A DNA stretch of 64,000 nucleotides, from contig OZ239628.1 in the NCBI GenBank assembly GCA_965195345.1, positions 1,152,001 to 1,216,000 of the forward strand, read 5' to 3'. Source of the DNA: an uncultured Thiomicrospira sp. GTDB taxonomy: Bacteria; Pseudomonadota; Gammaproteobacteria; CAKMZV01. Shown here piece after piece: positions 1,422-12,658 of the stretch. Position 1 is the first letter of the stretch; every line of letters starts with the position of its first letter. The notes below the pieces were generated by a model. It was not told where the DNA came from and ran no database searches. It was given only the letters and a program-made list of their open reading frames with translations. The position numbers were made by a program, and so were the translations under genes.

Positions 1422-2783
1422 TCATATATGATCTTTAGGATCGAAGCCTTCAGGAAAAATTGTGTAGATGTTATAAGCAATCTCTTTTAAATTTGCCCCT
1501 TCTAAAATCGCCCCTTCTAAAATCGCCCCTTCTAAATTCGCCCTTTCTAAATTCGCCCCTTCTAAATTCGCCTCAATTAAATTCGCCAATATTAAATCCG
1601 CCTCAATTAAATTCGCCCTTTCTAAATTCGCCCCTTCTAAAGCCGCATCTACTAAATTCTTCTCTTGTAAATTCGCCTCTTGTAAATTCGCCCCTCGTAA
1701 ATTCGCCCATTCTAACTTCACCCCTTGCAAATCCGCCCCAAATAAATCCGCCCTTTCTAAATTCGCCCCTTGTAAATCCGCATTTACTAAATTCGTGTTT
1801 TGTAAATTCGCGTCTTGTAAATTAGCCCTTTGTAAATTCGCCTCTTGTAAATTCGCCCCTCGTAAATTCGCCACTTCTAAATTCGCCCCTCGTAAATTCG
1901 CCCCTTGTAAATTCGCCACTTCTAAATTCGCGTCTTGTAAATTCGTCCTAAATAACTTAGCATCTCGTAAATCCGCCCCTTCTAAATTCGCCCCTTCTAA
2001 ATTTGCTAAAGTGAAATTACTACTTGAAAGACTAGCTTTTTTCAGAGATGAAAAAGAAAAGTTATTTTTCACTTGAAATGTATTACTTAAATCAAGATGA
2101 TCTAATATTGCATTTTTATACTGAATTTTTGAGGAATCATGAGCTTTAGATGTTTGGGGGGGGGGTATGGGTATTTCTGCTTGCACTATTACTTCCTTTT
2201 GTTCTTGTTTTTGTTCTTGTTCTTGTTCTTGTTCTTGTTCTTGTTCTTGTTCTTGTTCTTGTTTTTGTTCTTGTTTTTGTTCTTGTTTTTGTTCTTGTTT
2301 TTGTTCTTGTTCTTGTTTTTGTTTTTGTTCTTGTTCTTGTTCTTGTTTTTGTTTTTGTTTTTGTTCTTGGTTGCCTCTTGTAATGTTATCTATCTGATCT
2401 GTGAATGCGGGCAAGTTTCTTCTTGCATCAGCTATTGATCTTATACCTATAGCCTTTCTTTCCTCGGCATCAGAAGACAAGAGATCATATGCACTAGTTA
2501 AGAGTGAAAGATAGTGACCGTCTTTGGTGTCTTGTGTTCTGAATAACCATAAGGCAATAAATACAGGCAATCCCAATAGCAAAGCTCTTAATGAAGTTAT
2601 TTCTACTGGAGTTCTAAGTCCTAATTTCTCACAGAAAAAGTTCAATACTGACCAATCAAATGTATGAAATATTATGTTGCCACTGATAAAAAACCACCCG
2701 GTTAAACTGGAGGCTAATAAAATAAATAATCGGGTTATTTTTAATTTATCAAGCTCGCTCAATTTTTTTGTATGCCGCTCCAT
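1422..2783 (-). CDS. Membrane-anchored pentapeptide-repeat protein (paralog 1) with (QE/QK)n linker
   Basis: Two hydrophobic segments (LFILLASSLTGWFF, LLLGLPVFIALWLF), ~35 A(N/D)LxG-type repeats plus ~8 degenerate ones, C-terminal TIFPEGFDP. Start placed at 2783 from the AGGA spacing; ORF track extends to 2891. Confidence 0.85.
   Translation of the reverse strand: MERHTKKLSELDKLKITRLFILLASSLTGWFFISGNIIFHTFDWSVLNFFCEKLGLRTPVEITSLRALLLGLPVFIALWLFRTQDTKDGHYLSLLTSAYDLLSSDAEERKAIGIRSIADARRNLPAFTDQIDNITRGNQEQKQKQKQEQEQEQKQKQEQEQKQEQKQEQKQEQKQEQEQEQEQEQEQEQEQKQEQKEVIVQAEIPIPPPQTSKAHDSSKIQYKNAILDHLDLSNTFQVKNNFSFSSLKKASLSSSNFTLANLEGANLEGADLRDAKLFRTNLQDANLEVANLQGANLRGANLEVANLRGANLQEANLQRANLQDANLQNTNLVNADLQGANLERADLFGADLQGVKLEWANLRGANLQEANLQEKNLVDAALEGANLERANLIEADLILANLIEANLEGANLERANLEGAILEGAILEGANLKEIAYNIYTIFPEGFDPKDHI
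1482..2007. repeat. 15-bp tandem repeats encoding pentapeptide repeats
   Basis: Units such as TCTAAATTCGCCCCT and TGTAAATTCGCCCCT, ~35 copies. Confidence 0.9.
2156..2165. repeat. G10 homopolymer inside paralog 1 (encodes PPP on the minus strand)
   Basis: tttGGGGGGGGGGtatgg. Confidence 0.9.
2196..2369. repeat. Hexanucleotide microsatellite (TTGTTC/TTGTTT) x ~29 encoding (QE/QK)n
   Basis: Read directly; 29 Q-E/K dipeptides in the translation. Confidence 0.95.
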
Positions 2784-2822
2784 TGACATTTCCTTTTTTT
2801 GTTTGATTATTAAGGCAATTGT

Positions 2823-2994
2823 ACCCGCTCCGTCTGCGAAAGTTAAAAAAGTGCTTGACACGCGTCTGCATGTGTTTTGTATAAGTCGCATTTAATTATT
2901 AAATGACTGTTTTACTTTGGAGAAAGAATGAACAAAAGCACAATGAAAACGATTACGGGCGTAGTATTTACTGCTGCGGTCGCATTCGCAACGG
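2823..2994 (+). repeat. Direct repeat copy A (late promoter + P7 5' end); partner at 12461-12633
   Basis: Manual alignment gives ~13 differences over ~172 bp (~92% identity). Confidence 0.95.
2855..2885 (+). promoter_or_regulatory. Putative sigma70 promoter for the structural genes
   Basis: TTGACA (2855-2860), 19-bp spacer, TATAAG (2880-2885); GGAG precedes ATG 2928. Confidence 0.5.
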
Positions 2995-3053
2995 TTGCAA
3001 TTGCAACGCGTTTTAAACCAGCACGTAAAGTGTTGAACGTTGACAACTATTAA
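2928..3053 (+). CDS. Small virion membrane protein, PM2 P7-like (41 aa; not in ORF track)
   Basis: MNKSTMKTITGVVFTAAVAFATVAIATRFKPARKVLNVDNY; GGAG RBS; directly precedes the capsid gene, as PM2 gene VII does. Confidence 0.75.
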   Translation: MNKSTMKTITGVVFTAAVAFATVAIATRFKPARKVLNVDNY

Positions 3054-3062
3054 GAGGTTGCG

Positions 3063-3836
3063 ATGAGAATTAGACAACAAAAACTTGATTCGCCTAATGG
3101 AGGCGGATTTGATAACGATTTTATCTTTACCCTGCCAAAAGGCATCAGCATTCATGAAGTGGCATTCGTGCTTTCTGCAATGGCTATAAGCGATGTCAAA
3201 AAGGTAGTGGTTGAAATAGACGGCGTTACTAACGTTGAATGCAGTGGAGAAGATTTGTCCCTATTGCAAGCACTCTACTCAAAACCACAAAAAGACAACA
3301 CTCTGATTATTCCTTTTTCAGGGCAAAACAGTCAAACGTGGGAAGGAGCAACGGACGGACTATTGACAATATTACCAAATGAACAATGCGTTATCCGCTT
3401 AAGCATTGGTGCTGGTAATGGCAATCCCTCAGTTGATGGTTTCATCCGTTATCAGTTTGCAGCAACTCGCACGGCATTACCAAGAATACAACGCATTCCC
3501 CTGCCCCAAGTTGAGGTTGGCGAGCGTTTGTTTTCTTACCCCCATGCACGCCGTTTTGTTCGCACAATGATATTGACTGGTGGCGCACCTGATAAATTCA
3601 AGATTGTGCAAAACGGGCAAGCGTTGTTTGTAACGAGCGATGAATTAAATCGTTTCATGTTAGAGCGCAACGGGCTAACGCCTCAAGACGGGCATTTTGC
3701 CTTTGTTCCAGCAATGGAAGGTTTTGAAGCGGCTGACAAGCTCAATGGTGCTAATGCACGTATTGAATTTTCAGCAACGGAAGTGGGTGCAACGTCTGTG
3801 CTTATTCACACGATTGAACCTACTCAAGCACAGTAA
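3063..3836 (+). CDS. Major capsid protein, double jelly-roll (PM2 P2-like)
   Basis: 257 aa, beta-rich; N-terminal LPKG...VKKVVVEIDG resembles the recalled PM2 P2 pattern LPIG...IKNVRVELDG; GAGG RBS; position after ATPase and P7. Confidence 0.8.
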   Translation: MRIRQQKLDSPNGGGFDNDFIFTLPKGISIHEVAFVLSAMAISDVKKVVVEIDGVTNVECSGEDLSLLQALYSKPQKDNTLIIPFSGQNSQTWEGATDGLLTILPNEQCVIRLSIGAGNGNPSVDGFIRYQFAATRTALPRIQRIPLPQVEVGERLFSYPHARRFVRTMILTGGAPDKFKIVQNGQALFVTSDELNRFMLERNGLTPQDGHFAFVPAMEGFEAADKLNGANARIEFSATEVGATSVLIHTIEPTQAQ

Positions 3837-4183
3837 TGAGTAAACTTTCGTTGAATGACATCATTCGAGGCGGTCAAGACATCACCCGCGATATTGAAAA
3901 CGCGGGTGATACTGATATTAGCAACGAGATAGGCAATGCAGGAACACGCTTATTGAATGAACCAATCAAATATTCACCCATCCACCCTACACAAGCAAGC
4001 ATTGCGGGAAGCGAGCCTATTCATAAAACAGGCGCGCCATTGGCATTGTTTGGTGCTGGTGCGGGAGTTGGTGCGGGATATGGTTTATCGCAAGCCCTAT
4101 CCTCCCCCATTGGGAAAGTAGGCTTGGCAGTGGTTGCTACTGTATTGGGTGCATTTGTAATTAAGCGGTTTAAGTTAGCATGA
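3836..4183 (+). CDS. Virion membrane protein (P3-like by position)
   Basis: TAATG coupling to the capsid gene; C-terminal TM followed by KRFK. Confidence 0.65.
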   Translation: MSKLSLNDIIRGGQDITRDIENAGDTDISNEIGNAGTRLLNEPIKYSPIHPTQASIAGSEPIHKTGAPLALFGAGAGVGAGYGLSQALSSPIGKVGLAVVATVLGAFVIKRFKLA

Positions 4184-4398
4184 TCTCGCCACTCGGACCC
4201 GTTTCAGCAGGTGGCGATATTTCGCCTGATCTATCATCAACCGCAACAAGTGGTGATGCGAGCAATGATAGTGAAAATAACTTTAGCTTTGGAGATAAGC
4301 ACATCAACAACGGCGCACAAGGCATTCCAGCATGGATTGCTGTTGCAGGTGGTATTTTAATCGCGGGTGGATTATGGTTTTTTGGACGGCGGGCATAG
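4180..4398 (+). CDS. Virion membrane protein, PM2 P8-like
   Basis: 72 aa; SSTATSG..FSFG then C-terminal TM and GRR, similar to P8 architecture; ATGA coupling. Confidence 0.7.
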   Translation: MISPLGPVSAGGDISPDLSSTATSGDASNDSENNFSFGDKHINNGAQGIPAWIAVAGGILIAGGLWFFGRRA

Positions 4399-4730
4399 AT
4401 GAAACATTTGTGCCTGCAGGCATTAAAAAAGCACTTGGTACTGCCCTCGATGAAATCAAAATGGAATGTATCAAGGGCGTTAGTCAATGCTGGAAATTTA
4501 ACAATGGGCGTTTCATTACCCGCATTGAGCATAAGGAGTTAGTGATTGTGGCATTTACTGGACGCAATACTTCAAATGTTTTTTCAGCAATCTATCAATC
4601 TGCAAAGAATGGTGGTTTTCAATCGATCCGCATTCACACGAACAATCCAAAATGGGTGCGCTTTATTCGCATTAAAGGGTTTGTATTTGATGAAGTAGCA
4701 ATCGGTATATATCGGCTGGAGGTTGCGTAA
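4374..4730 (+). CDS. Corticovirus-like hypothetical protein (possible GNAT-like fold)
   Basis: ELVIVAFTG...AKNGGFQSIRIHT...GF; TAATG coupling to next gene. Start uncertain (track gives 4332). Confidence 0.6.
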   Translation: MVFWTAGIDETFVPAGIKKALGTALDEIKMECIKGVSQCWKFNNGRFITRIEHKELVIVAFTGRNTSNVFSAIYQSAKNGGFQSIRIHTNNPKWVRFIRIKGFVFDEVAIGIYRLEVA

Positions 4731-5146
4731 TGGGCGGTAGTAGCAAAAGCAGAACCAGTGCGGACGTTTTCAATCAACAGCAAGATAGATCGGTTGTTTT
4801 TGCACCAAGTGGTAACGGAAATCAAACGGCCGTAACTGGCAATGTTGGCGGTGATGTAGTTATTGAGAACACGGATCATGGCGCAATTGAAGCATCGTTT
4901 AGTTTTGGCGAGCGCATTGGCGCATTGGCGATTGATAGAAGTGCAGATTCAGCAGAGTTTGCAATTGAGGCGGTACAGGATGCCCATCGTGAAGCAAGCG
5001 AAAGCGCAAGCGAGCAAAACAAAGCATTCAGTGGCGCAATCAGTGCATTCAAATCAGAAACGCAAGGCATTGGTAAAAACCTCTTGATCGTTAGCGGAGC
5101 GGGCGCGATTTCTTTAGTAGCGGTTGTATTTTTAATTAAGAAATAA
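4730..5146 (+). CDS. Membrane/DNA-delivery protein, PM2 P10-like
   Basis: MGGSSKS N-terminus, TDHGA motif, C-terminal TM ending KK; GGAGG RBS. Confidence 0.65.
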   Translation: MGGSSKSRTSADVFNQQQDRSVVFAPSGNGNQTAVTGNVGGDVVIENTDHGAIEASFSFGERIGALAIDRSADSAEFAIEAVQDAHREASESASEQNKAFSGAISAFKSETQGIGKNLLIVSGAGAISLVAVVFLIKK

Positions 5147-5147
5147 C

Positions 5148-5579
5148 ATGGCAAGAATAAACATAAAAGCGCATGGCGCGATCGATTTACCAATCAATCA
5201 GCGATTTATTCTTTTTCTTAGTAGTTCACGTGCAACGATTGAAGGCGTACGGATCACTCGAGGATTAACAGTTGAGCGTTCAGAATTAGAGCCACTAATC
5301 CGCATTGAAAATCCAAGCAACACTTATACAACAATTGATTATGTCATAAGTGGCAACCGCATTATTATCCCTGTCAATGATGTAGTAATCAGCGAAGCAA
5401 TAGCAATTAGTAATGCGGTAGAAATTGCCAATGCAATTGAAATAAGCAATCAAGTATCAGAAGCCAAGATTGCGCGCAGTGTCGTCATTGGTAACTACTA
5501 CATAGCGCATCCTGATGAAGTGCCAGAGGCAGAACATCCAGCAGACTTGCAAAAAATATTAGAGAAAATCGGAGTTTAA
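5148..5579 (+). CDS. Putative vertex/penton or spike-base protein
   Basis: Beta-rich N-terminus then hexad repeats ISEAIA-ISNAVE-IANAIE-ISNQVS; position after the P10-like gene. Confidence 0.5.
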   Translation: MARINIKAHGAIDLPINQRFILFLSSSRATIEGVRITRGLTVERSELEPLIRIENPSNTYTTIDYVISGNRIIIPVNDVVISEAIAISNAVEIANAIEISNQVSEAKIARSVVIGNYYIAHPDEVPEAEHPADLQKILEKIGV

Positions 5580-5581
5580 CA

Positions 5582-6094
5582 ATGGCAAACAAATATCAAT
5601 CTTACGAAGAACGACAAAACGATCGCATTAGCGCATTGGAGCAAGTCAATGGTATAGAGGTCGATGATGGCAATGTTGGCATACCGTCTATCAAAGGCGA
5701 GCAAGGCGAAAAAGGCGAGCAAGGCATACAGGGCGTACAGGGCGTACAGGGCGAAAAAGGCGACAACGGTGCAGATGGGATAACGACTAACTATATTGAT
5801 ATAGACGTTGTAAAAAACCAGACCTACATAATTCCGCACTCGCTTGGTGCATTGCCTAAAGGCGTACAGTTGTCCGTAAAGATTACCGATGCTGAACGTA
5901 GTGATTTTTCTGTTAACAAATGGCGTTTAATTTCTTCTCCAACGGATTTTTGGAGCGGTCGCCAGCATCATGTAGGCGCAATAGTGGCAATAAATGTTTC
6001 AGAAATAGAGATACAAACGGGGAATTTACTCTACCACGATGAATCAGACGATACGTCCATGGATGCTGGAACTGTCCGCGTCACTTATTTTTAA
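5582..6094 (+). CDS. Collagen-repeat spike / receptor-binding protein
   Basis: Nine consecutive Gly-X-Y triplets (GEQGEKGEQGIQGVQGVQGEKGDNGADG), N-terminal RISALE coil, C-terminal beta domain (HSLGALP). Confidence 0.7.
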   Translation: MANKYQSYEERQNDRISALEQVNGIEVDDGNVGIPSIKGEQGEKGEQGIQGVQGVQGEKGDNGADGITTNYIDIDVVKNQTYIIPHSLGALPKGVQLSVKITDAERSDFSVNKWRLISSPTDFWSGRQHHVGAIVAINVSEIEIQTGNLLYHDESDDTSMDAGTVRVTYF

Positions 6095-6109
6095 TTTATA
6101 AGGAAAAAA

Positions 6110-6499
6110 ATGAGCAAATTTTTAGCATTTAACAAAAAAGGCGAGTGTGTAAGTATTGTTGATGAAAAAGTATTTCTAAACACAACCTATGCAGAAGCCC
6201 CTAAAGGCGCAAATAAAAGAAACTTCACGAACTATGTTATTCGTGATGATGGAACAGTAGAGGAAAAATCAAAAAAAGAAATAGAACAAGAAGCAGTTGC
6301 AGGCTTATTGGCGGGCATAAAAGAAAGACGTAATGCCCTGCTCGCCCGCTCCGACTGGACACAATTGGCAGATGTTGCATTGAGTAATGAAGCAGGTGTG
6401 GAATGGACGCAATACCGCGCAAAGTTGCGTGCAATTGCTGATGGGATAACAACAGCCAAAGAAGCGGATGCCGTTGTTTTTCCTGATGAGCCTGCCTAA
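6110..6499 (+). CDS. Phage tail-fibre assembly chaperone-like protein
   Basis: RNALLARSDWTQLADV...WTQYRAKLR...FPDEP motif; AAGGA RBS. Confidence 0.8.
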   Translation: MSKFLAFNKKGECVSIVDEKVFLNTTYAEAPKGANKRNFTNYVIRDDGTVEEKSKKEIEQEAVAGLLAGIKERRNALLARSDWTQLADVALSNEAGVEWTQYRAKLRAIADGITTAKEADAVVFPDEPA

Positions 6500-6651
6500 T
6501 GGGTCAATCTGTTGGATTTATTGCAGGATTTGCTATTGTGTATTTACTTTTATCGATAAAACCAACCGATAAACAGCTTGCAGAAAGTGGCAACAAGATA
6601 GCACAGAAACGTGTTAATCATGATTATGTTAATGAGTTTGGCAAGTTGTGA
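6499..6651 (+). CDS. Small membrane protein (50 aa; not in ORF track)
   Basis: MGQSVGFIAGFAIVYLLLSIKP...; TAATG coupling upstream and GTGA coupling downstream. Confidence 0.65.
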   Translation: MGQSVGFIAGFAIVYLLLSIKPTDKQLAESGNKIAQKRVNHDYVNEFGKL

Positions 6652-7148
6652 AAGTAGGTTTATTTGCAGGCGCATTGCTTGCAGTTTTAGTCTTTTATTT
6701 AGGGAAAGAAATGCAAAGAAGAAAACCGAGAGGAATTAGAAATAATAACCCTGGGAACATAACGATAAATTTTAGCAATCGTTGGAAAGGTTCAATTCCA
6801 CGCTCCCAAAACACAGACGGTCGTTTTGTCCAGTTTATGACGATGGAAGCAGGCGTGCGCGCTATGACGATTGTGATCATCAACTACTACAAACGTGGAT
6901 TGACGACAATACGCGAAATTATTTCAACTTATGCGCCCTCTTTTGAAAACAAAACGGACGCTTATATTGATCACGTTGAAGATCGGATTGACATTGATGA
7001 AAATCAACATCTTGATCGGGATATGTTCATTGAAAAGATGCCGCTAATTGTCAAGGCAATAATCAGACATGAAAACGGCGAAACCATTGATCCTCAAGAA
7101 GTTTCAGCAGGTGTTTTTATGGGTAAAAAAGATAAAGGATTTTTATGA
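6648..7148 (+). CDS. Virion lytic/structural protein, PM2 P5-like
   Basis: N-terminal TM; RGIRNNNPGNI, F..MEAGVRA, YAPSFENKTDAYI and IIRHENG motifs. Confidence 0.85.
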   Translation: MKVGLFAGALLAVLVFYLGKEMQRRKPRGIRNNNPGNITINFSNRWKGSIPRSQNTDGRFVQFMTMEAGVRAMTIVIINYYKRGLTTIREIISTYAPSFENKTDAYIDHVEDRIDIDENQHLDRDMFIEKMPLIVKAIIRHENGETIDPQEVSAGVFMGKKDKGFL

Positions 7149-7558
7149 TATTTGACTGGATTGCAGACATATTTGAAACAAGTTCAAAGCACATAGACGA
7201 GTGGTTTACCACTGATGAAGAACGCGACAAAATGCGCAACGAATTTGCACGCATTAAGAACGCTGTTTCTATTAAGGTGCTGGCATTAGAAAAACAGCTG
7301 CTAACGGCGCAAACAAAAATAATTACCGCAGAGGCACAAGGGCAATCATGGCTACAACGCTCATGGCGTCCAATAACGATGCTTACCTTTTTAATTCTGG
7401 TCGTACTTGATTCAGGTGGACACTTAGCAAATCCACTTGCACCCGAAGCATGGACGCTTTTGCAAATTGGGATTGGTGGGTATGTAGTCGGGCGAAGCGT
7501 TGAAAAAATCGCGCCTAAAGTAATTGACACATTGAATCAAAATAATGGACGGGTTTAG
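7145..7558 (+). CDS. Holin, 3TM (GTA-holin-like) family
   Basis: TTDEER...AEAQGQSWLQRSWRP + TM + IGGYVVGRSVEK. Confidence 0.8.
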   Translation: MIFDWIADIFETSSKHIDEWFTTDEERDKMRNEFARIKNAVSIKVLALEKQLLTAQTKIITAEAQGQSWLQRSWRPITMLTFLILVVLDSGGHLANPLAPEAWTLLQIGIGGYVVGRSVEKIAPKVIDTLNQNNGRV

Positions 7559-7820
7559 TTTTTTTGAACTCATAGCGGGCGGTATTGGTGTTCAGCTGAT
7601 CGCTAATTATTTGATAACACAACGCGCAGTGCAGTCAGCTGTTCAATCAATAGACAAGCGTTTACTGGTTTTAGAACATAAACAAGCTGAAATGGAAAAG
7701 GAATACATTAGTGATTCAGAATGCAAACACAGAATGCAAACGATAGAAACAGATAAATACAAAGAAATTGCGAAAAACTTAGAAAAAGCAGGTTACCACA
7801 AACCACAAACAAGATTATGA
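7545..7820 (+). CDS. Small membrane/coiled-coil protein (lysis accessory?)
   Basis: N-terminal TM followed by DKRLLVLE coiled coil; overlaps the holin end. Confidence 0.6.
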   Translation: MDGFSFFELIAGGIGVQLIANYLITQRAVQSAVQSIDKRLLVLEHKQAEMEKEYISDSECKHRMQTIETDKYKEIAKNLEKAGYHKPQTRL

Positions 7821-8221
7821 GCAAAACAGCACAAGAGTTCCAAATAACGAAAACAACTAAAATATTTTCGCAAGCCAACAAAAATAGGAAGAAAGGCGAA
7901 AAGCCAGAATATTTTGAGATTATGGAAATGAATGAGCTGATGCCTATTGACCCATTGACAAACAAACTATATGAGCTAACAGCACCAGCACCAACCAAAG
8001 CCAAAGCACCAACCAAGCGAAAAGCACCAACCAAGCGAAAAGCACCAACCAAAGCCAAAGCACTAACCAAAGCCAAAGCACCAGCAAAGCGAAAAGCACC
8101 AGCCAAGCGAAAAGTAAGATCAATTATGTGTAAGGAAGGGCTTAAGGGTAACGGCGCATTAAAAAAGGGGCATAGGTTCTTAAAAGGTGGGCGCGTAGTT
8201 AAGGCAAAAGCAAAAAAATAA
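7817..8221 (+). CDS. Lys/Ala/Pro-rich histone H1-like basic protein
   Basis: Seven AP(T/A)K(A/R)K-type hexads; very basic C-terminus GALKKGHRFLKGGRVVKAKAKK; ATGA coupling. Confidence 0.65.
   Translation: MSKTAQEFQITKTTKIFSQANKNRKKGEKPEYFEIMEMNELMPIDPLTNKLYELTAPAPTKAKAPTKRKAPTKRKAPTKAKALTKAKAPAKRKAPAKRKVRSIMCKEGLKGNGALKKGHRFLKGGRVVKAKAKK
7988..8113. repeat. 18-bp tandem repeat x7
   Basis: GCACCAACCAAAGCCAAA / GCACCAACCAAGCGAAAA units. Confidence 0.9.
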
Positions 8222-8314
8222 TTCCGTAGTATTTTCAGAAAGAACATTTACCAGGGCAAAAAAATAATTCCGTAGTATTTTCAGAAAGAACATTTACCAG
8301 GGCAAAAAAATAAT
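8210..8314. repeat. Perfect 46-bp tandem duplication (2 copies + 13 bp)
   Basis: GCAAAAAAATAATTCCGTAGTATTTTCAGAAAGAACATTTACCAGG at 8210-8255 and 8256-8301. Confidence 0.95.
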
Positions 8315-8516
8315 AAAGCCAAATAGAAAAAGTCATCACGTGGTTAAAAACCCGTCTGGGGGATGGAGTGTAAGAAAATACGGATCACGGCGTGTCTCAA
8401 AAACTTTTCTTACACAAGCTGAAACCATAAAGTATGCAAAAAATATCAGTGATACACAAGGTTCACGGCTTATTATTCATCATCGAGATGGGAAAATAAA
8501 TTCAAACAAATTTTGA
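8313..8516 (+). pseudogene. DUF2188-like small protein lacking an ATG start
   Basis: Translation KPNRKSHHVVKNPSGGWSVRKYGSRRVSKTFLTQAETIKYAKNISDTQGSRLIIHHRDGKI fits the DUF2188 pattern HVV..GGW.V..TQ.EAI..IH.RDG.I; begins at ATA. Confidence 0.7.
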
Positions 8517-8615
8517 TAATTCAAAAAGATAAATAAAGAAAGATAATGAACGGCATTATATTTTTGCTGTAAGTCTTTGATTTTGAAGATAAGTTGCGTA
8601 TGAAGATAATCACGA

Positions 8616-8960
8616 ATGGAGGCTAAAAAAGGTGCTTATAACGTGTTGATCAATCAATCGCGTGCTTTTGGGTTGGTCGTGGTCGTGATTGCTCAACGTC
8701 CAACGGAGATAGACAAAACAACATTCAATCAAGCGGACTTGATCCACATCTGGCGAATACAAGGTAATGATAGAAAATCACTTTCAAAATCAATTGGCAT
8801 TGATGATGGCGCACTACCTGATGAAAATCTAAAATTCATTCAATGGGAAGCATCAAAGGGCTTGACGATTAAAAAAGGCAATTTACAATTTGTTAAAAAA
8901 GGCAATAAAACAATTCCAACGTTCTATAATGGTGAGCGAAAAATGGAAATTAAGCTATGA
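8616..8960 (+). pseudogene. C-terminal half of a second P9-like packaging ATPase (no Walker A/B)
   Basis: NQSRAFGLVVVVIAQRPTEIDKTTFNQA aligns with NQSRALGANVLVLAQKPEEIDKSTLDQA of 731-1390. Confidence 0.8.
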
Positions 8961-9250
8961 GCGCAAACAAACAATTATTGACTATATCAGGATTAGGAGA
9001 CAAGGCAAATCATGCAATATATGGTGCGTCATTTTCCTTGTTGGGTACTGTTGCATTTGCTAACCTTGCAACAACAGACATCAGTAGTACCTATGCATTA
9101 GGGTTTGGGCTTGCTTGTGGTGTTTTCCTTGCTGGAGCAGTTGAAATATACGATCTTATTTCTGGACGTGGTACGCCCTCTTTTCTTGATTTTCTTGCAA
9201 CGATCAGCATTCCCGCTTTGTTATTCGCCATTGCATTACTCATGAAGTAA
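8957..9250 (+). CDS. Small multi-TM protein (VanZ-like pattern)
   Basis: DKANH...AGAVEIYD...GTPSFLDFLAT; about three hydrophobic segments; ATGA coupling. Confidence 0.65.
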   Translation: MSANKQLLTISGLGDKANHAIYGASFSLLGTVAFANLATTDISSTYALGFGLACGVFLAGAVEIYDLISGRGTPSFLDFLATISIPALLFAIALLMK

Positions 9251-9278
9251 TATATCCCCCCAATGGCGAAAACATGTG

Positions 9279-9305
9279 AAGCACCCTGCGGGGTGCTTTT
9301 TTATT
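9279..9305 (+). terminator. Rho-independent terminator
   Basis: AAGCACCC-TGCG-GGGTGCTT followed by a T-run. Confidence 0.8.
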
Positions 9306-10314
9306 CTTTTTTTATCAGGACTGTAAAATTGCCATTTTCGTCAACTTCAATCATGTCGTTTTCTTCAGGATCGAAATCTGCAGGAAAGATTGTTTTTTCG
9401 TTATAATACGCCCCTTGTAACTTCGCCTCTTGTAACTCCGCCCCTTGTAACTCCGCTCCTCGTAAATCCGCTCCTCGTAAATCCGCCTCTTCTAAATTCG
9501 CCCCTTGTAACTCCGCTCCTCGTAAATCCGCCCTTTGTAAATCCGTCCCTTGTAAATACGACCCTTGTAACTTCGCCACCAGTAAGTTCGCCCCTTGTAA
9601 CTTCGCCAGCAGTAAGCTCATCCCTTGTAAATTCGCTCCGAAAAAATTTGCAACCTCTGATGACTCATTTATTTGCTTTATTTGTTCATTTGTTGGATCT
9701 TCGGGTGCATTGAGTTGTGCCTCACTGGTAAGTATCAAGCCATCAGTAGCACTATCAATTTGATCGGAAAAAGCTGGATAATTTCTTCTTAATGTTGCTA
9801 ATGACTTAACACCAATACAACGACTTACTAATTCAGGTGATGTAATCAATATAAAACCATTGGACAGAATTGCAGTATGGATGCTCTTGTCTGATTTTTC
9901 AATATGCTCCTGTGTCTTTTCAATTTGTTCTCTGGTGTCATGTGTTCTGAAATACCATAAACCAATAAATACAGGCAACCCCAATAATAAAACTCTTATT
10001 GAACTCGCTGCGTAACTTTCTTGAGACTCATTACCATCAAAGGATAGAAGTTCAATGATGCAATCAGAAAAGAGAGTAGTTAAAAACATGCCGACAATAG
10101 AAAGAATTATTAAACTTATAAATCGCCCTTTTTTTGTTTGTGTAAGGCATTCCCAAATCTTCATTCCTTTTTTCTTTTTTTGCTTAAACCATTCGATTCT
10201 TTGTTTAGAACTGGTGGAGAAAAAACATAAAAGAAAAATGGCAACTACTAAAGTAATAAATTGCTTTAGCATCGGGCTAAGACTAATTTGCATGATCCAA
10301 TTTTCAATATTCAT
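9301..10314 (-). CDS. Membrane-anchored pentapeptide-repeat protein (paralog 2)
   Basis: Three hydrophobic segments, LLLGLPVFIGLWYFRTHDT, 17 pentapeptides, TIFPADFDPEENDMIEVDENG tail; AGGA RBS. Confidence 0.9.
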   Translation of the reverse strand: MNIENWIMQISLSPMLKQFITLVVAIFLLCFFSTSSKQRIEWFKQKKKKGMKIWECLTQTKKGRFISLIILSIVGMFLTTLFSDCIIELLSFDGNESQESYAASSIRVLLLGLPVFIGLWYFRTHDTREQIEKTQEHIEKSDKSIHTAILSNGFILITSPELVSRCIGVKSLATLRRNYPAFSDQIDSATDGLILTSEAQLNAPEDPTNEQIKQINESSEVANFFGANLQGMSLLLAKLQGANLLVAKLQGSYLQGTDLQRADLRGAELQGANLEEADLRGADLRGAELQGAELQEAKLQGAYYNEKTIFPADFDPEENDMIEVDENGNFTVLIKKE

Positions 10315-10329
10315 TTTTCATTCCTTTTT

Positions 10330-11307
10330 TTATTCTTCTTTTATAGGGTTGCCATTTTCGTCCACTTCAATCATGTCGTTTTCTTCAGGATCGAAATCTG
10401 CAGGAAAGATTGTGTATCTGTCATACTTCGCCCTTTGTAACTTCGCCTCTTGTAACTTCGCCCCTTGTAAATACGCCCCTTGTAACTTCACCTCTTTTAA
10501 ATTCGCCCATTGTAAATTCGCCCCTTGTAACTTCGCCCCTTGTAAATACGCCCCTTGTAACTCCGCCCATTGTAAATACGCCCCTTGTAAATACACCCCT
10601 GTTAACTCCGCCCCTTGTAACTTCGCCCTTTCTAAATTCACCCCTTGTAACTCCGCCCCTACAAAATTTGCAACCTCTGAATTCTTTATTGCTCCTATCT
10701 GTGAACCTGGTACTTTTTGTGGATTGGCTCTTTCTTTGCTGGTGAGTATCAAATCTTTAGTAACATTATCAATTTGATTGGTAAAAGCTGGATAATTTCT
10801 TTTTAAAGTTGCTAATGACTTAACACCAATACAACGACTTGGTAATTCAGTTGATGCCAGTAAAGTATAAGCATTGGATAGAATTGCAGTATGGATGCTC
10901 TCTTGTGCTTTTTGGATTTGTTCTCTGGTGTCATGTGTTCTGAAATACCATAAACCAATAAATACAGGCAACCCCAATAATAAAACTCTTATTGAACTCG
11001 CTGCGTAACTTTCTTGAAATTTATCACCATCAAAGGATAGAAGTTCAATGATGCAATCAGAAAAGAGAGTAGTTAAAAACATGCCTACAATAGAAAGAAT
11101 TATTAAACTTATAAATCGCCCTAATTTTGTTTGTGTAAGGCATTCCCAAATCTTCATTCCTTTATTCTTTTTTTGTTTAAGCCATTCGATTCTTTGTTTA
11201 GAACTGGTGGGAAGAAGACATAAAAGAAAAATGGCAACTACTAAAGTAATAAATTGCTTAAGCATCGGGCTAAGGCTAATTTGTATGAGCCAATTTTCAA
11301 TATTCAT
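10330..11307 (-). CDS. Membrane-anchored pentapeptide-repeat protein (paralog 3)
   Basis: N-terminus nearly identical to paralog 2; 17 pentapeptides; same tail. Confidence 0.9.
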   Translation of the reverse strand: MNIENWLIQISLSPMLKQFITLVVAIFLLCLLPTSSKQRIEWLKQKKNKGMKIWECLTQTKLGRFISLIILSIVGMFLTTLFSDCIIELLSFDGDKFQESYAASSIRVLLLGLPVFIGLWYFRTHDTREQIQKAQESIHTAILSNAYTLLASTELPSRCIGVKSLATLKRNYPAFTNQIDNVTKDLILTSKERANPQKVPGSQIGAIKNSEVANFVGAELQGVNLERAKLQGAELTGVYLQGAYLQWAELQGAYLQGAKLQGANLQWANLKEVKLQGAYLQGAKLQEAKLQRAKYDRYTIFPADFDPEENDMIEVDENGNPIKEE

Positions 11308-11343
11308 TTTTCATTCCTTTTTTTGATTATTAAGTGAATTGTG

Positions 11344-11370
11344 AAGCACTCTGCGGGGTGCTTTTTTATT
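11344..11370 (+). terminator. Second copy of the 9279 terminator hairpin
   Basis: AAGCACTC-TGCG-GGGTGCTT followed by a T-run. Confidence 0.7.
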
Positions 11371-12424
11371 TTTTGTTTATCGGGTAGCCATTTTCGTCTA
11401 CTTCAATCATCCCATGATCTTCAGGTTCAAACCCTGGAGGGAATTTTGTTTCAGTATCATAAAAAGCTCCATCTAAAAGTGCCGTATCTAATTTGGAATT
11501 CAAGTCCGAGGAGAGCATGCTATTAACATCTAAACCAAGTGCCTTTGCCACTTGATGATTCATGTCTGCTGGGCAAAAGCATGCACCTTGTAAGTTAGCA
11601 CCTTGTAATTTACTTTCCTTAAAATCTACCTCTATAAAAGTCGCATTTTCAAAGTTTGAATACCTTAAATCAGAATAGGAAAAATCAACAAAATGCGAAA
11701 TACTATTGGGAAAATTCATCCCTGAAAGATCCACATACATAAGGCGTAATCTTTCCTTATTATCAGAAAAACCGTTTAAAGAAAGAGCAGTAGTAGATTG
11801 ATCAAGTTGAGTTTGGATAACTGAACTTTCAACCGTTTGCTTCAATACAGCCAATGTGACTAATCCAAGTCTACGGGCATTGACATTATTAGTGCTAATT
11901 AAATTTAATCCATTTGATAAGATGGAGGTGTAAGTGTTCTCCTGTGATTTTTCAATCTGCTCTTTTGATTGGGTAGTCTGCTTATGTGATATTTCAATCT
12001 GCTCTTGTGATTTTTCAATCTGCTCTTGTGTCTTTTCAATTTGTTCTCTGGTGTCATGTGTTCTGAAATACCATAAACCAATAAATACAGGCAACCCCAA
12101 TAATAAAACTCTTATTGAACTCGCTGCGTAACTTTCTTGACGCTCATCACCATCAAAGGATAGAAGTTCAATGATGCAATCAGAAAAGAGAGTAGTTAAA
12201 AACATGCCTACAATAGAAAGAATTATTAAACTTATAAATCGCCCTTTTTTTGTTTGAGTAAGCCCTTTCCAACCGAACCGTCTGAACCATCGATAATACT
12301 TCTTGAAAAAAGCATAAACTTTTGACTGTTTTAAGAATTCTGTTCTTGATAAATTAACAAATTGTTTTATTTTTATTTGTTTCAACCATTTCCAATACTT
12401 CTTAATCCATTCAAAAATATTCAT
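11366..12424 (-). CDS. Membrane-anchored pentapeptide-repeat protein (paralog 4, mosaic)
   Basis: Shares the near-identical TQTKKGRF...RTHDTREQIEKTQE block with paralogs 2/3; distinct basic-aromatic N-terminus; five heptads; degenerate pentapeptides. Confidence 0.85.
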   Translation of the reverse strand: MNIFEWIKKYWKWLKQIKIKQFVNLSRTEFLKQSKVYAFFKKYYRWFRRFGWKGLTQTKKGRFISLIILSIVGMFLTTLFSDCIIELLSFDGDERQESYAASSIRVLLLGLPVFIGLWYFRTHDTREQIEKTQEQIEKSQEQIEISHKQTTQSKEQIEKSQENTYTSILSNGLNLISTNNVNARRLGLVTLAVLKQTVESSVIQTQLDQSTTALSLNGFSDNKERLRLMYVDLSGMNFPNSISHFVDFSYSDLRYSNFENATFIEVDFKESKLQGANLQGACFCPADMNHQVAKALGLDVNSMLSSDLNSKLDTALLDGAFYDTETKFPPGFEPEDHGMIEVDENGYPINKK

Positions 12425-12460
12425 TTTTCATCTCTTTTAGTTTTTGAGTAAGTGAATTTT

Positions 12461-12658
12461 ACCCTCTCCGTCTGCGAAAGTTAAAAGGTTGCTTGGCACG
12501 CGTCTGCATGTGTTTTGTATAAGTCGCTTTTAATTATTAAATGATTGTTTTACTTTGGGGAAAGAATGAACAAAAGCACAATGAAAACGATTACGGGCGG
12601 TGGTATTTACTGTTGCGGTCGCGTTCACAACGGGCTAACGCCTTAAGAAGGGTATTTT
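12461..12658 (+). pseudogene. Duplicate late promoter + frameshifted P7 fused to a 25-bp capsid-gene remnant
   Basis: 12461-12633 matches 2823-2994; 12634-12658 matches 3674-3698 (3 mismatches); -35 mutated to TTGGCA; capsid CAA codon changed to TAA. Confidence 0.9.

Follow-up and report, generated by a model that had tools for sequence, protein, structure and literature searches.

A variable antisense slot for membrane-anchored pentapeptide-repeat genes in tandem tailless proviruses of an uncultured Thiomicrospira sp.

Background

Tailless double-jelly-roll viruses abound in the sea but have received little study, and most of their accessory genes have no assigned role. The present work concerns one such accessory locus, a slot in tandem PM2-like proviruses of an uncultured Thiomicrospira sp. 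(Gammaproteobacteria; GenBank assembly GCA_965195345.1) that holds antisense genes for membrane-anchored pentapeptide-repeat proteins (PRPs). The stretch of DNA analysed, hereafter the window, comprises 64,000 nucleotides of contig OZ239628.1 (positions 1,152,001 to 1,216,000 of the forward strand) and is part of a closed genome of 1.92 Mb that is 99.7% complete. Positions without a locus label count from the first nucleotide of the window.

Accessory hotspots in tailless prophages are already known. Tailless (Vinavirales) prophages of Vibrio have a single accessory-gene hotspot that is enriched in defence systems (PMC11630473). Those elements resemble the present proviruses in being small, of the double-jelly-roll type and about 13-15 kb long, in having one variable locus that differs between close relatives, and in tandem or shared occupancy of the integration site. 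The content and position of the cargo are different. In two Vibrio elements, PfiAT, ParD, DUF2971 and bNACHT genes stand after the lysis genes or near the regulators, and the gap between the ATPase and capsid genes is 106-254 bp with, at most, a same-strand open reading frame (ORF) of 43 aa. The slot described here, in contrast, is antisense and lies between the ATPase gene and the P7-like and capsid genes, and its PRP cargo matches no known system.

The slot was compared in ten genomes: PM2, GXT1010, fNo16, PG21, one autolykivirus, two Vibrio prophage elements, and three proviruses obtained from 400 genomes of the class. The Corticoviridae and the autolykivirus have the same gene order as the present proviruses (Rep, then ATPase, P7 where present, P2 capsid, and membrane, spike and lysis genes) and the same P2_N and P2_C capsid domains; however, the capsid proteins are only 13-23% identical, and the present units exceed them in size, at about 14 kb, and lack an integrase of their own. 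In PM2, P7 lies directly ahead of P2. None of the ten comparators has a gene of at least 100 aa between ATPase and capsid. The interval is about 100-470 bp with zero to two small same-strand ORFs, and fNo16 alone has an annotated antisense ORF in it, of 55 aa. A first-pass annotation of the window had placed the PRP genes in a fixed slot of a tailless provirus; these intervals indicate that the slot is not general to PM2-like elements. The late promoter of PM2 presumably lies in the gap between P9 and P7, and this would make the slot an operon boundary.

Pentapeptide repeats have been found in phage accessory regions and in conflict systems. In the P22-like phages L and ST64T, orf232 is a PRP gene of the accessory region, and isolates differ by one 15-bp repeat (PMC8022706). 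PRP arrays also serve as variable modules in conflict systems (PMC7159879; bioRxiv 10.1101/2022.07.19.500537). The repeat-array sensors described there resemble the present PRPs in joining a constant module to fast-varying, superstructure-forming repeats, pentapeptides included, and in residing in defence islands. The present PRPs differ in having no NTPase, caspase, TRADD-N or other known effector; their constant part is a hairpin of two transmembrane (TM) helices. Mycobacteriophage Sbash gp31 was considered as a further precedent and dropped, since the text searched has no occurrence of pentapeptide repeats for it.

P22 SieA, T4 Imm and HK97 gp15 are membrane-anchored superinfection-exclusion proteins of temperate phages. 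They are inner-membrane proteins encoded by prophages and expressed apart from the lytic genes, as is supposed for the present PRPs. The slot, its PRP cargo, the N-terminal module of these proteins and the link to defence islands were not found in the literature searched, Pfam, NCBIfam or PADLOC, supplementary cargo lists aside.

Results and discussion

Tandem proviruses and their common slot

The window starts within the second of two tandem PM2-like tailless proviruses. The whole array consists, in order, of a host tyrosine-recombinase gene, a 31-bp direct repeat, unit 1, the repeat, unit 2, the repeat, and a 4-kb remnant of a further provirus. Measured from repeat to repeat, unit 1 is 13.8 kb and lies wholly upstream of the window, and unit 2 is 14.3 kb and ends at the repeat copy at 8599-8629, where the remnant (8599-12633) begins. 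The repeat has three exact copies in the genome, which bound the provirus units: one 66 bp upstream of the tyrosine-recombinase gene, one between the proviruses, and the one in the window. No copy was found in four related genomes.

Both units encode a repressor-like protein, a Dam-type methylase (PF02086), a gpA-type rolling-circle Rep (PF05840 Phage_GPA, E 2.5e-53), the ATPase, a PRP, a P7-like protein, the P2-type capsid protein, a collagen-repeat protein, and membrane, spike and lysis genes, including an endolysin-like protein and a holin with three TM helices. Assigned from their genes alone, the units are PM2-like proviruses of the corticovirus type (Vinavirales), with a P2-type double-jelly-roll capsid, a P9-like ATPase upstream of it, a rolling-circle Rep, small membrane proteins and a size in the range of 10-15 kb. 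Exactly two copies of the P2-type capsid gene were found in the genome by profile search.

In all three copies of the provirus, one or more antisense PRP genes lie between the packaging ATPase gene and the P7-like and capsid genes. Five paralogs were identified: U1 in unit 1, U2 in unit 2, and B1, B2 and B3 in the remnant. The first-pass annotation had described the four that fall in the window, in a fixed slot of two provirus copies, and this description holds: all four are minus-strand ORFs with PF00805 matches (Table 1), the genes on the flanks of the slot were identified in both copies, and the fifth paralog, U1 (438 aa), occupies the same slot of the upstream provirus. With a PF00805 cut-off of 20.2 bits, three of the window PRPs score 83-178 bits and B3 scores 45.6 bits. 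The 1.92-Mb genome has 20 PF00805 matches in total, every one of them within the five paralogs, and a tblastn search of the genome with the N-terminal module gave no match outside them; thus, PRPs are exclusively provirus-linked in this organism.

An exchanged cassette in a conserved backbone

Unit 1 and unit 2 are 88-99% identical throughout, the PRP gene excepted. Their colinearity stops at 1383, at the end of the ATPase gene, and is regained only at 2797, which is 14 bp ahead of the start codon of the PRP gene. The cassette in between (1384-2796) is not colinear with unit 1, and only the repeat array and the tail can be aligned, at about 79%, while the flanks are 91-98% identical between the units. 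Protein identity between U1 and U2 rises from the TM module (36%) through the helical domain (44%) and the repeat core (54%) to the tail (76%). The PRP gene is therefore the sole gene that has been replaced between two near-identical units. In this respect it resembles a moron, because the slot sits amid conserved core genes and its content differs between close prophages.

The promoter-like region upstream of the PRP gene belongs to the conserved backbone. Its identity between copies is 97.7% and 93.5%, the second value being that of the 184 bp upstream of B3 against the region upstream of the unit-1 PRP. In both copies scanned, a putative promoter TTAACT-17-TA(C/A)AAT lies at the equivalent position. 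For U2, a start at 2783 is more likely than one at 2891, since homology between the proviruses resumes at 2797 and the promoter-like site (2846-2818) would fall inside the longer ORF. From this start the parts of U2 are, in order, a 2-TM hairpin, a helical domain, a low-complexity linker of E, Q and K, about 42 pentapeptides, and an FPEGFDP tail. A single slot may thus be said to act as a cassette site, with a constant backbone, a constant promoter-like region, and a different membrane-tethered PRP in each copy.

Four runs of one study contain the stretch, in fragmentary unitigs. A contig from another sample of this study (run X3, depth 2.2) fuses the 3' end of the ATPase gene directly to a B2-like 3' end, which is weak evidence that other variants of the provirus carry other alleles in the slot. 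Paralog junctions in contigs of run X1 (9981->12227, 12272->10315 and 10354->1814) are probably repeat artefacts and were not used.

Retention of the PRP genes in a decayed provirus

The remnant had been described in the first pass as a copy in which viral genes have decayed while the PRP genes stayed intact and became three, and its gene content agrees with that description. The ATPase has lost its N-terminal half, and the P7-like gene is a frameshifted stub from about 12567, just before the host genes that begin at 12658; the three PRP genes and a gene for a small membrane protein of 97 aa are intact. The ATPase fragment is only 43% identical to the C-terminus of the unit-2 product (731-1390).

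The rightmost 31-bp repeat (8599-8660 region) runs into about codon 113 of an ATPase gene, and at this point there is short microhomology, of a few bases, to the intact gene. Since this third repeat copy shares bases with the opening codons of the ATPase fragment, nothing separates the remnant from the attachment core. The arrangement suggests that an older provirus lost its left half when the attachment core recombined with a pseudo-site in the ATPase gene.

The start of the 97-aa gene overlaps the ATPase stop, an arrangement of translational coupling, and the gene is convergent with the PRP genes. An 85-aa homolog follows the ATPase gene of unit 1 (about 13.1-12.8 kb upstream of the window start), and none is present in unit 2. 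Searches of Pfam, PHROGs, PADLOC and NCBIfam gave no family for this protein, which may be a membrane protein of the virus or else work together with the PRPs.

Structure and topology of the PRPs

Each PRP has a 2-TM hairpin that closes with the motif P-x4-LW-x-FRT-x-DT and continues into a stalk, either a long helix or a coiled coil. A small helical domain comes next, and a linker then leads to an acidic pentapeptide beta-helix of about 19 to 42 repeats with the cap Y-x3-T-x-FP-x-F-D/E-P. The wide range of repeat number arises because the cores are 15-bp tandem arrays. In the AlphaFold2 model of B2, made from a 31-row alignment (mean predicted local distance difference test score, pLDDT, 86.8), helices span residues 14-31, 36-59, 61-89 and 96-150, the last being TM2 that continues into the long stalk. 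After these come two short helices (155-183) and a linker modelled with low confidence. The beta-helix, at about 212-305, has pLDDT values of 94-98. The predicted beta-helix has one strand per five residues, as in the quadrilateral right-handed PRP fold. A predicted homodimer of B2 scored 0.01.

Hydropathy gives two conserved TM segments in all paralogs and an extra N-terminal one in U1, B1 and B2. With basic residues ahead of TM1 and an acidic loop between TM1 and TM2, the repeat domain is inferred, by the positive-inside rule, to be cytoplasmic and tethered to the inner membrane. The repeat domains carry a net charge of -7 to -15 and have isoelectric points of 4.3-4.8.

The repeat domain and its C-terminal cap are most similar to Alr5209, Rfr23 and NP275/NP276, both by family model (NF052603, E 1.5e-46 to 5e-12) and by Foldseek (E 5e-9 to 2.5e-7, 35-40% identity). 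Solved PRP structures are the top Foldseek matches of the B2 model, and the cyanobacterial PRPs among them have 35-47% identity. Against NF052603, the Alr5209 family (about 113 aa, equivalog cut-off 125 bits), U2 scores 157 bits by way of four repeated stretches, and B1, B2 and B3 score 78, 76 and 46 bits. These cyanobacterial proteins, which are not known to be viral, consist of the repeat domain alone (113-181 aa), without TM helices, stalk or helical module, and it is the N-terminal membrane module that sets the architecture of the present PRPs apart from the Alr5209 family. This module has no Pfam or NCBIfam match, and its ESM Atlas matches, of at most 0.90, are to unnamed clusters.

The first-pass annotation had drawn an analogy with the gyrase-directed DNA mimics MfpA and Qnr. 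Qnr, MfpA and EfsQnr do share the right-handed quadrilateral beta-helix and an acidic surface with the present proteins, and Foldseek lists QnrB1, MfpA and EfsQnr. However, these matches have 14-21% identity and rank below the cyanobacterial PRPs. The NCBIfam Qnr and MfpA matches are likewise weak, 16-77 bits against equivalog cut-offs of 240 (Qnr), 360 (MfpA) and 425-500 bits (named Qnr types); the best scores all belong to U2 (QnrS 76.6, MfpA 67.8 and Qnr 62.7 bits), with the other PRPs lower. Moreover, Qnr and MfpA are soluble proteins of about 180-220 aa that bind gyrase as dimers, whereas the present PRPs have 325-453 aa, two to three TM helices and a variable number of repeats. A TM anchor, a stalk and a helical domain are not known from the Qnr/MfpA family. 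The analogy is therefore not upheld.

Mosaic evolution of the paralogs

The TM motif LLLGLPVFI(G/A)LW(Y/L)FRT and the FP and F(D/E)P elements of the tail, which had been noted as shared features, are invariant columns in the alignment of the four window paralogs, and their repeat cores differ. The meaning of this conservation needs some qualification in the remnant. The TM modules of B1-B3 are 97-98% identical in DNA (synonymous divergence, dS, 0.02-0.07), yet the adjoining helical domain of B3 is only 49% identical to that of B1 and B2 (dS above 1.4). Because so similar a module adjoins so divergent a domain, the conservation among these three genes is not simply the result of purifying selection; they appear to be mosaics that have been homogenised by recent gene conversion, to which the conservation of the motif in the remnant copies is largely due.

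The ratio of nonsynonymous to synonymous rates (dN/dS) exceeds 1 in the repeat core of six of the ten paralog pairs, and is 0.16-0.95 in the TM and helical modules (0.16-0.86 in divergent pairs, and 0.16-0.52 where U1 is one of the pair). In the two pairs with 84 aligned columns, U2-B1 and U2-B2, variation is greatest at the exposed positions of the repeats. These signals are suggestive only, because the 15-bp arrays bring register ambiguity and concerted evolution.

A family that extends beyond proviruses

A profile of the N-terminal module, built from the five paralogs, matched 255 clusters at E<=1e-3 and 92 at 1e-10 among 1.84 billion representatives. Among the best 150 of these 255 matches, 110 carry PF00805, and the architecture is thus conserved. 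In B2 numbering, D126 is invariant, with P114, L119, W120, F122, R123 and T124 almost as constant. At 47-52% identity, the nearest relatives are P0004-P0006, three paralogs that share a metagenomic contig of 39.6 kb. Motif scans, which used the 31-row alignment, found 13 loci when one genome per species was searched, all of them in metagenome-assembled genomes labelled as Gammaproteobacteria (two in the genus of the window), Candidatus Spongiihabitans, Candidatus Poriferihabitaceae, Arenicellales, PS1 clade, Leptospirales and Campylobacterales, and 10 more loci in JGI metagenomes.

If the family had its home in proviruses, as was first supposed, its other members should stand among viral genes. 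Within the fetched flanks, homologs of 19 proteins of this provirus were found at none of the 23 non-self loci, and none of 10 family-bearing genomes searched has a P2_C capsid match, although the identical search recovers both copies in the genome of the window. The supposition therefore failed, as it also did in the scan of IMG/VR considered below.

In the neighbourhoods of the family, PADLOC models were compared with 30 proteins, chosen by eye at 15 of the 21 distinct loci outside this genome; L032 and L033, duplicates of L034, were dropped. Strong matches lie within 6 kb of a family gene at six of the 21 distinct loci. Two of these belong to the genus of the window: L018 has Olokun OloA and OloB (E 4e-87 and 2e-184) and L017 has PD-T4-3 (E 7e-105). 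The other four are L019, with a type IIG restriction-modification gene and a PLD-SNF2 helicase; L020, with the KAP NTPase PDC-S20, a type III restriction enzyme and PD-T4-4 A/B; L021, with PD-T4-4 A and a type III mod gene, followed by a res-like ORF that was classed by its likeness to that of L020; and L035, with PDC-S01. Lone methylases occur near a family gene at two more loci, L027 and L028. The N-terminal module thus defines a cross-phylum family that recurs in defence islands.

At two of these loci, family members are embedded in type III restriction-modification operons. At L021:8064-13788, a family member of 198 aa shares 4 bp with the type III mod gene and stands ahead of the res-like ORF, and at L020:2939-11317 two family members flank the KAP NTPase and res genes.

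Possible function of the cassette

As to function, four observations were weighed: the cassette swap, the retention and triplication of the PRP genes in a dead remnant, the relatives in defence islands, and the joining of a constant module to a fast-varying repeat surface. The reading that we favour, tentatively and with somewhat less than an even chance of being right, is that the PRP gene would be an accessory conflict gene expressed in lysogeny, with its product tethered to the inner face of the membrane. According to this model, the gene would be a moron-type accessory cassette that is transcribed on its own from the prophage. The constant module would anchor the protein, possibly also acting as a membrane effector or oligomerisation module, and the fast-changing acidic beta-helix would be the specificity surface, a sensor or a decoy. 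At the membrane, the beta-helix might bind a protein of an invading element or the machine that handles its DNA, for this is the site where membrane-containing viruses deliver, replicate and package their DNA. As a net effect, the lysogen and its prophage would be protected from other mobile elements, by defence or heterotypic exclusion, and near-identical viruses would not be excluded. After decay of the provirus the host would keep the cassette, a possible origin of the chromosomal clusters of the family in defence islands of related genomes.

A cassette for superinfection exclusion or antiviral defence, retained by the host, had been proposed in the first pass. What stands of that proposal is that the genes are provirus cargo, vary between near-identical viruses, outlast the decay of the virus, and have relatives in defence islands. 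Exclusion of close relatives is less probable.

Several observations weigh against the conflict-gene reading. Two related proviruses coexist with a remnant that has three PRP genes; the PRPs therefore evidently did not block close relatives, unless the remnant was truncated after the others had integrated. The motif scan of IMG/VR found no family member, and thus the family is not generally viral. Many relatives stand amid housekeeping genes, such as those at L022, L031, L034 and L037, and the counts of defence neighbours come from picks made by eye, without a background rate. In PADLOC-DB v2, B1, B2, B3 and the 97-aa protein matched no family, and the matches of U2 (AbiLii, E 1.8e-4, and PDC-M33A, E 3e-3) fall on the low-complexity EQK linker only. 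The promoter and terminator calls are consensus matches that occur at or below the frequency expected from shuffled sequence, the topology is based on hydropathy and charge counts, and dN/dS values are unreliable over 15-bp tandem arrays for the reasons given above.

A stronger form of the favoured reading is that the PRPs constitute a new single-gene antiviral family, with the 2-TM hairpin and stalk as constant effector or scaffold, the hypervariable beta-helix as sensor or decoy for the DNA-handling proteins of incoming viruses, and a history as an exchangeable cassette of tailless membrane-containing viruses. These viruses would turn it against competitors, and hosts would later domesticate it, so that it seeded the clusters beside Olokun, type III restriction-modification and PD-T4 systems. 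We regard this as possible, but on the unlikely side. If it were correct, a compact system of one gene and 1 kb would be added to those known, pentapeptide repeats, a fold with few known functions, would gain a role in virus-host conflict, and a route from provirus cargo to chromosomal defence island would be indicated.

It is unlikely that the PRP serves the virus itself in counter-defence or in its life cycle, as a membrane-tethered DNA mimic directed against restriction, nucleases or topoisomerases, or as an organiser of replication or assembly. The acidity of the repeat domains is like that of DNA-mimic PRPs, every copy of this virus lineage has a PRP gene beside its packaging ATPase gene, the provirus has a Dam-type methylase of its own, and relatives near restriction-modification genes could equally reflect an anti-restriction or regulatory link. 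A core function of the virus, however, would hardly be encoded antisense to both viral blocks and swapped wholesale between near-identical viruses, nor would three intact copies be expected to be kept in a remnant that is unable to make virions. The lack of such a gene in all ten other corticovirus-like genomes, and of family members in the IMG/VR scan, also speaks against a viral factor. Among known anti-restriction mimics, a membrane anchor would be unusual.

Phage-borne ankyrin proteins of sponge symbionts have been reported to alter the interaction with the animal host, and a comparable role in lysogenic conversion, for host physiology or symbiosis (at the membrane or envelope, or toward an animal host), may be asked for the PRPs. 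Several family-bearing genomes have names that suggest sponges (Candidatus Spongiihabitans and Candidatus Poriferihabitaceae), a likeness that goes no further than the name. The best counterparts of the repeat domains are Alr5209, Rfr23, NP275/276 and HetL, cyanobacterial PRPs whose function is unknown or developmental, and the many members amid housekeeping genes would be in keeping with a physiological role. The predicted topology, however, places the repeat domain in the cytoplasm. FHIPEP, VirB4 and TssC had no match in the 99.7%-complete genome, so that the search gave no sign of export by a type III, IVA or VI system. A conflict gene accounts better for the swapping of cassettes and for the neighbours in defence islands, and we consider a conversion factor distinctly unlikely. 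A type III effector of the PipB or PipB2 kind was rejected, with scores of 99.5 bits against 274 (PipB) and 107 bits against 354 (PipB2) and no FHIPEP match.

Selfish or neutral cargo, that is, repeat-rich genes hitch-hiking at a permissive operon boundary in a remnant whose decay is recent, would explain why the slot lies at a boundary of gene blocks, where insertions are tolerated and comparators show a gap of 134-465 bp, and it would accommodate the recent duplication or conversion that is evident in the TM modules of B1-B3. It is nevertheless improbable. All five copies are long intact ORFs despite 15-bp and 6-bp arrays that are prone to slippage, the TM and helical modules of divergent pairs (U1 against the others) have dN/dS values under 1, and the N-terminal module is conserved over the 255 clusters and several phyla. 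Protection of gyrase from a toxin, an antibiotic or a phage inhibitor in the manner of Qnr, MfpA or McbG is very improbable in view of the low family scores, the low structural identities and the membrane-anchored architecture set out above, and of the shortest copies, which have only about 19 repeats.

Other features of the array

The features of the window that bear on the locus are collected in Table 1.

Table 1. Positions of provirus, slot and remnant features in the window
Feature	Position	Strand	Evidence and remarks
P9-like packaging ATPase, unit 2, 219 aa	731..1390	+	phrog_2666 E 7e-18, Walker-A AAA matches; left wall of slot
PRP U2, 453 aa from Met37	1422..2783	-	PF00805 E 2e-53; longest ORF 489 aa, 1422-2891
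15-bp-period tandem array, 34.7 copies	1484..2003		Tandem Repeats Finder (TRF); DNA of U2 pentapeptide core
6-bp-period tandem array, 28.5 copies	2199..2369		TRF; encodes (E/K)Q linker of U2
Promoter-like site TTAACT-17-TACAAT, upstream of U2	2818..2846	-	consensus scan only
P7-like small membrane protein ORF, 41 aa	2929..3054	+	sequence and translation; GGAG ahead; first gene of late/structural block
PM2 P2-type capsid gene	3063..3836	+	PF18628 E 7e-13, PF25513 E 2e-15
Structural and lysis block	3836..8221	+	97.7% identical to unit 1 across 5.5 kb
Collagen-repeat protein	5582..6094	+	structural block
Endolysin-like protein	6648..7148	+	lysis
3-TM holin	7145..7558	+	lysis
Basic AKAPTKRK-repeat protein	7817..8221	+	last gene of structural block
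31-bp direct repeat	8599..8629	+	unit boundary; overlaps start of ATPase remnant
Remnant of a different P9-like ATPase, C-terminal 114 aa, no Walker A	8616..8960	+	phrog_2666 E 1.6e-10
Small membrane protein, 97 aa	8957..9250	+	start overlaps ATPase stop
GC-rich hairpin between convergent 97-aa gene and B1	9278..9299		terminator-like scan
PRP B1, 337 aa	9301..10314	-	PF00805 E 9e-24
Tandem array similar to the 15-bp-period array of U2	9405..9607		TRF
PRP B2, 325 aa	10330..11307	-	PF00805 E 4e-37; protein modelled by AlphaFold2
Tandem array similar to the 15-bp-period array of U2	10425..10660		TRF
Near-identical GC-rich hairpin just past B3 stop	11343..11364		terminator-like scan
PRP B3, 352 aa	11366..12424	-	PF00805 E 5e-12; divergent helical domain, degenerate repeat core, near-identical TM module
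Remnant right end: conserved PRP/late promoter region and P7-like stub	12450..12633		93.5% identity to unit-1 PRP upstream region
Promoter-like site equivalent to that of U2, upstream of B3	12456..12484		consensus scan only

The integration of these proviruses is a second point of interest, for tandem units without an integrase stand beside a conserved host recombinase. No integrase gene is encoded in unit 1 or unit 2. The adjacent tyrosine-recombinase gene (L001:235-1386, minus strand, upstream of the window) is single-copy and is kept, at 51-60% identity, in all four related genomes searched; no capsid gene was found in the three of these recombinase-bearing genomes that were covered by the capsid-family searches. 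The recombinase scores 88 bits against the XerC/XerD models, below the cut-off of 335 bits. The array of recombinase, site and inserts resembles integration that depends on a host recombinase, as in CTX-phi/XerCD, or an integron-like platform for whole viruses.

At the right end of unit 2, just past the last viral gene, lies a perfect 46-bp tandem repeat (2.3 copies, 8210-8314). The interval 8316-8511, beside the attachment site, is skipped in contigs of three runs and differs between the unit ends; it is non-coding and variable.

Each provirus encodes a Dam-type N6-adenine methyltransferase (PF02086, E 4e-24; L001:3281-4108 in unit 1, with a counterpart in unit 2). It could serve for self-protection from restriction or for epigenetic conversion of the host. 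For the capsid protein, no close relatives were found in IMG/VR, and a search of an index of 5.8 billion proteins returned the self match only.

Some products of the structural block also deserve mention. The collagen triple-helix protein (170 aa, PF01391, E 4e-7) stands at the position of a spike or receptor-binding gene, and the product that follows it (6110-6499) has a tail-assembly-chaperone domain (PF16778), which is odd for a tailless virus. The AKAPTKRK-repeat protein is very basic and is encoded with an 18-bp DNA repeat in 7 copies (7987-8114), the pattern of which differs between the proviruses; it may be a histone-H1-like DNA-condensing protein of the tailless virus.

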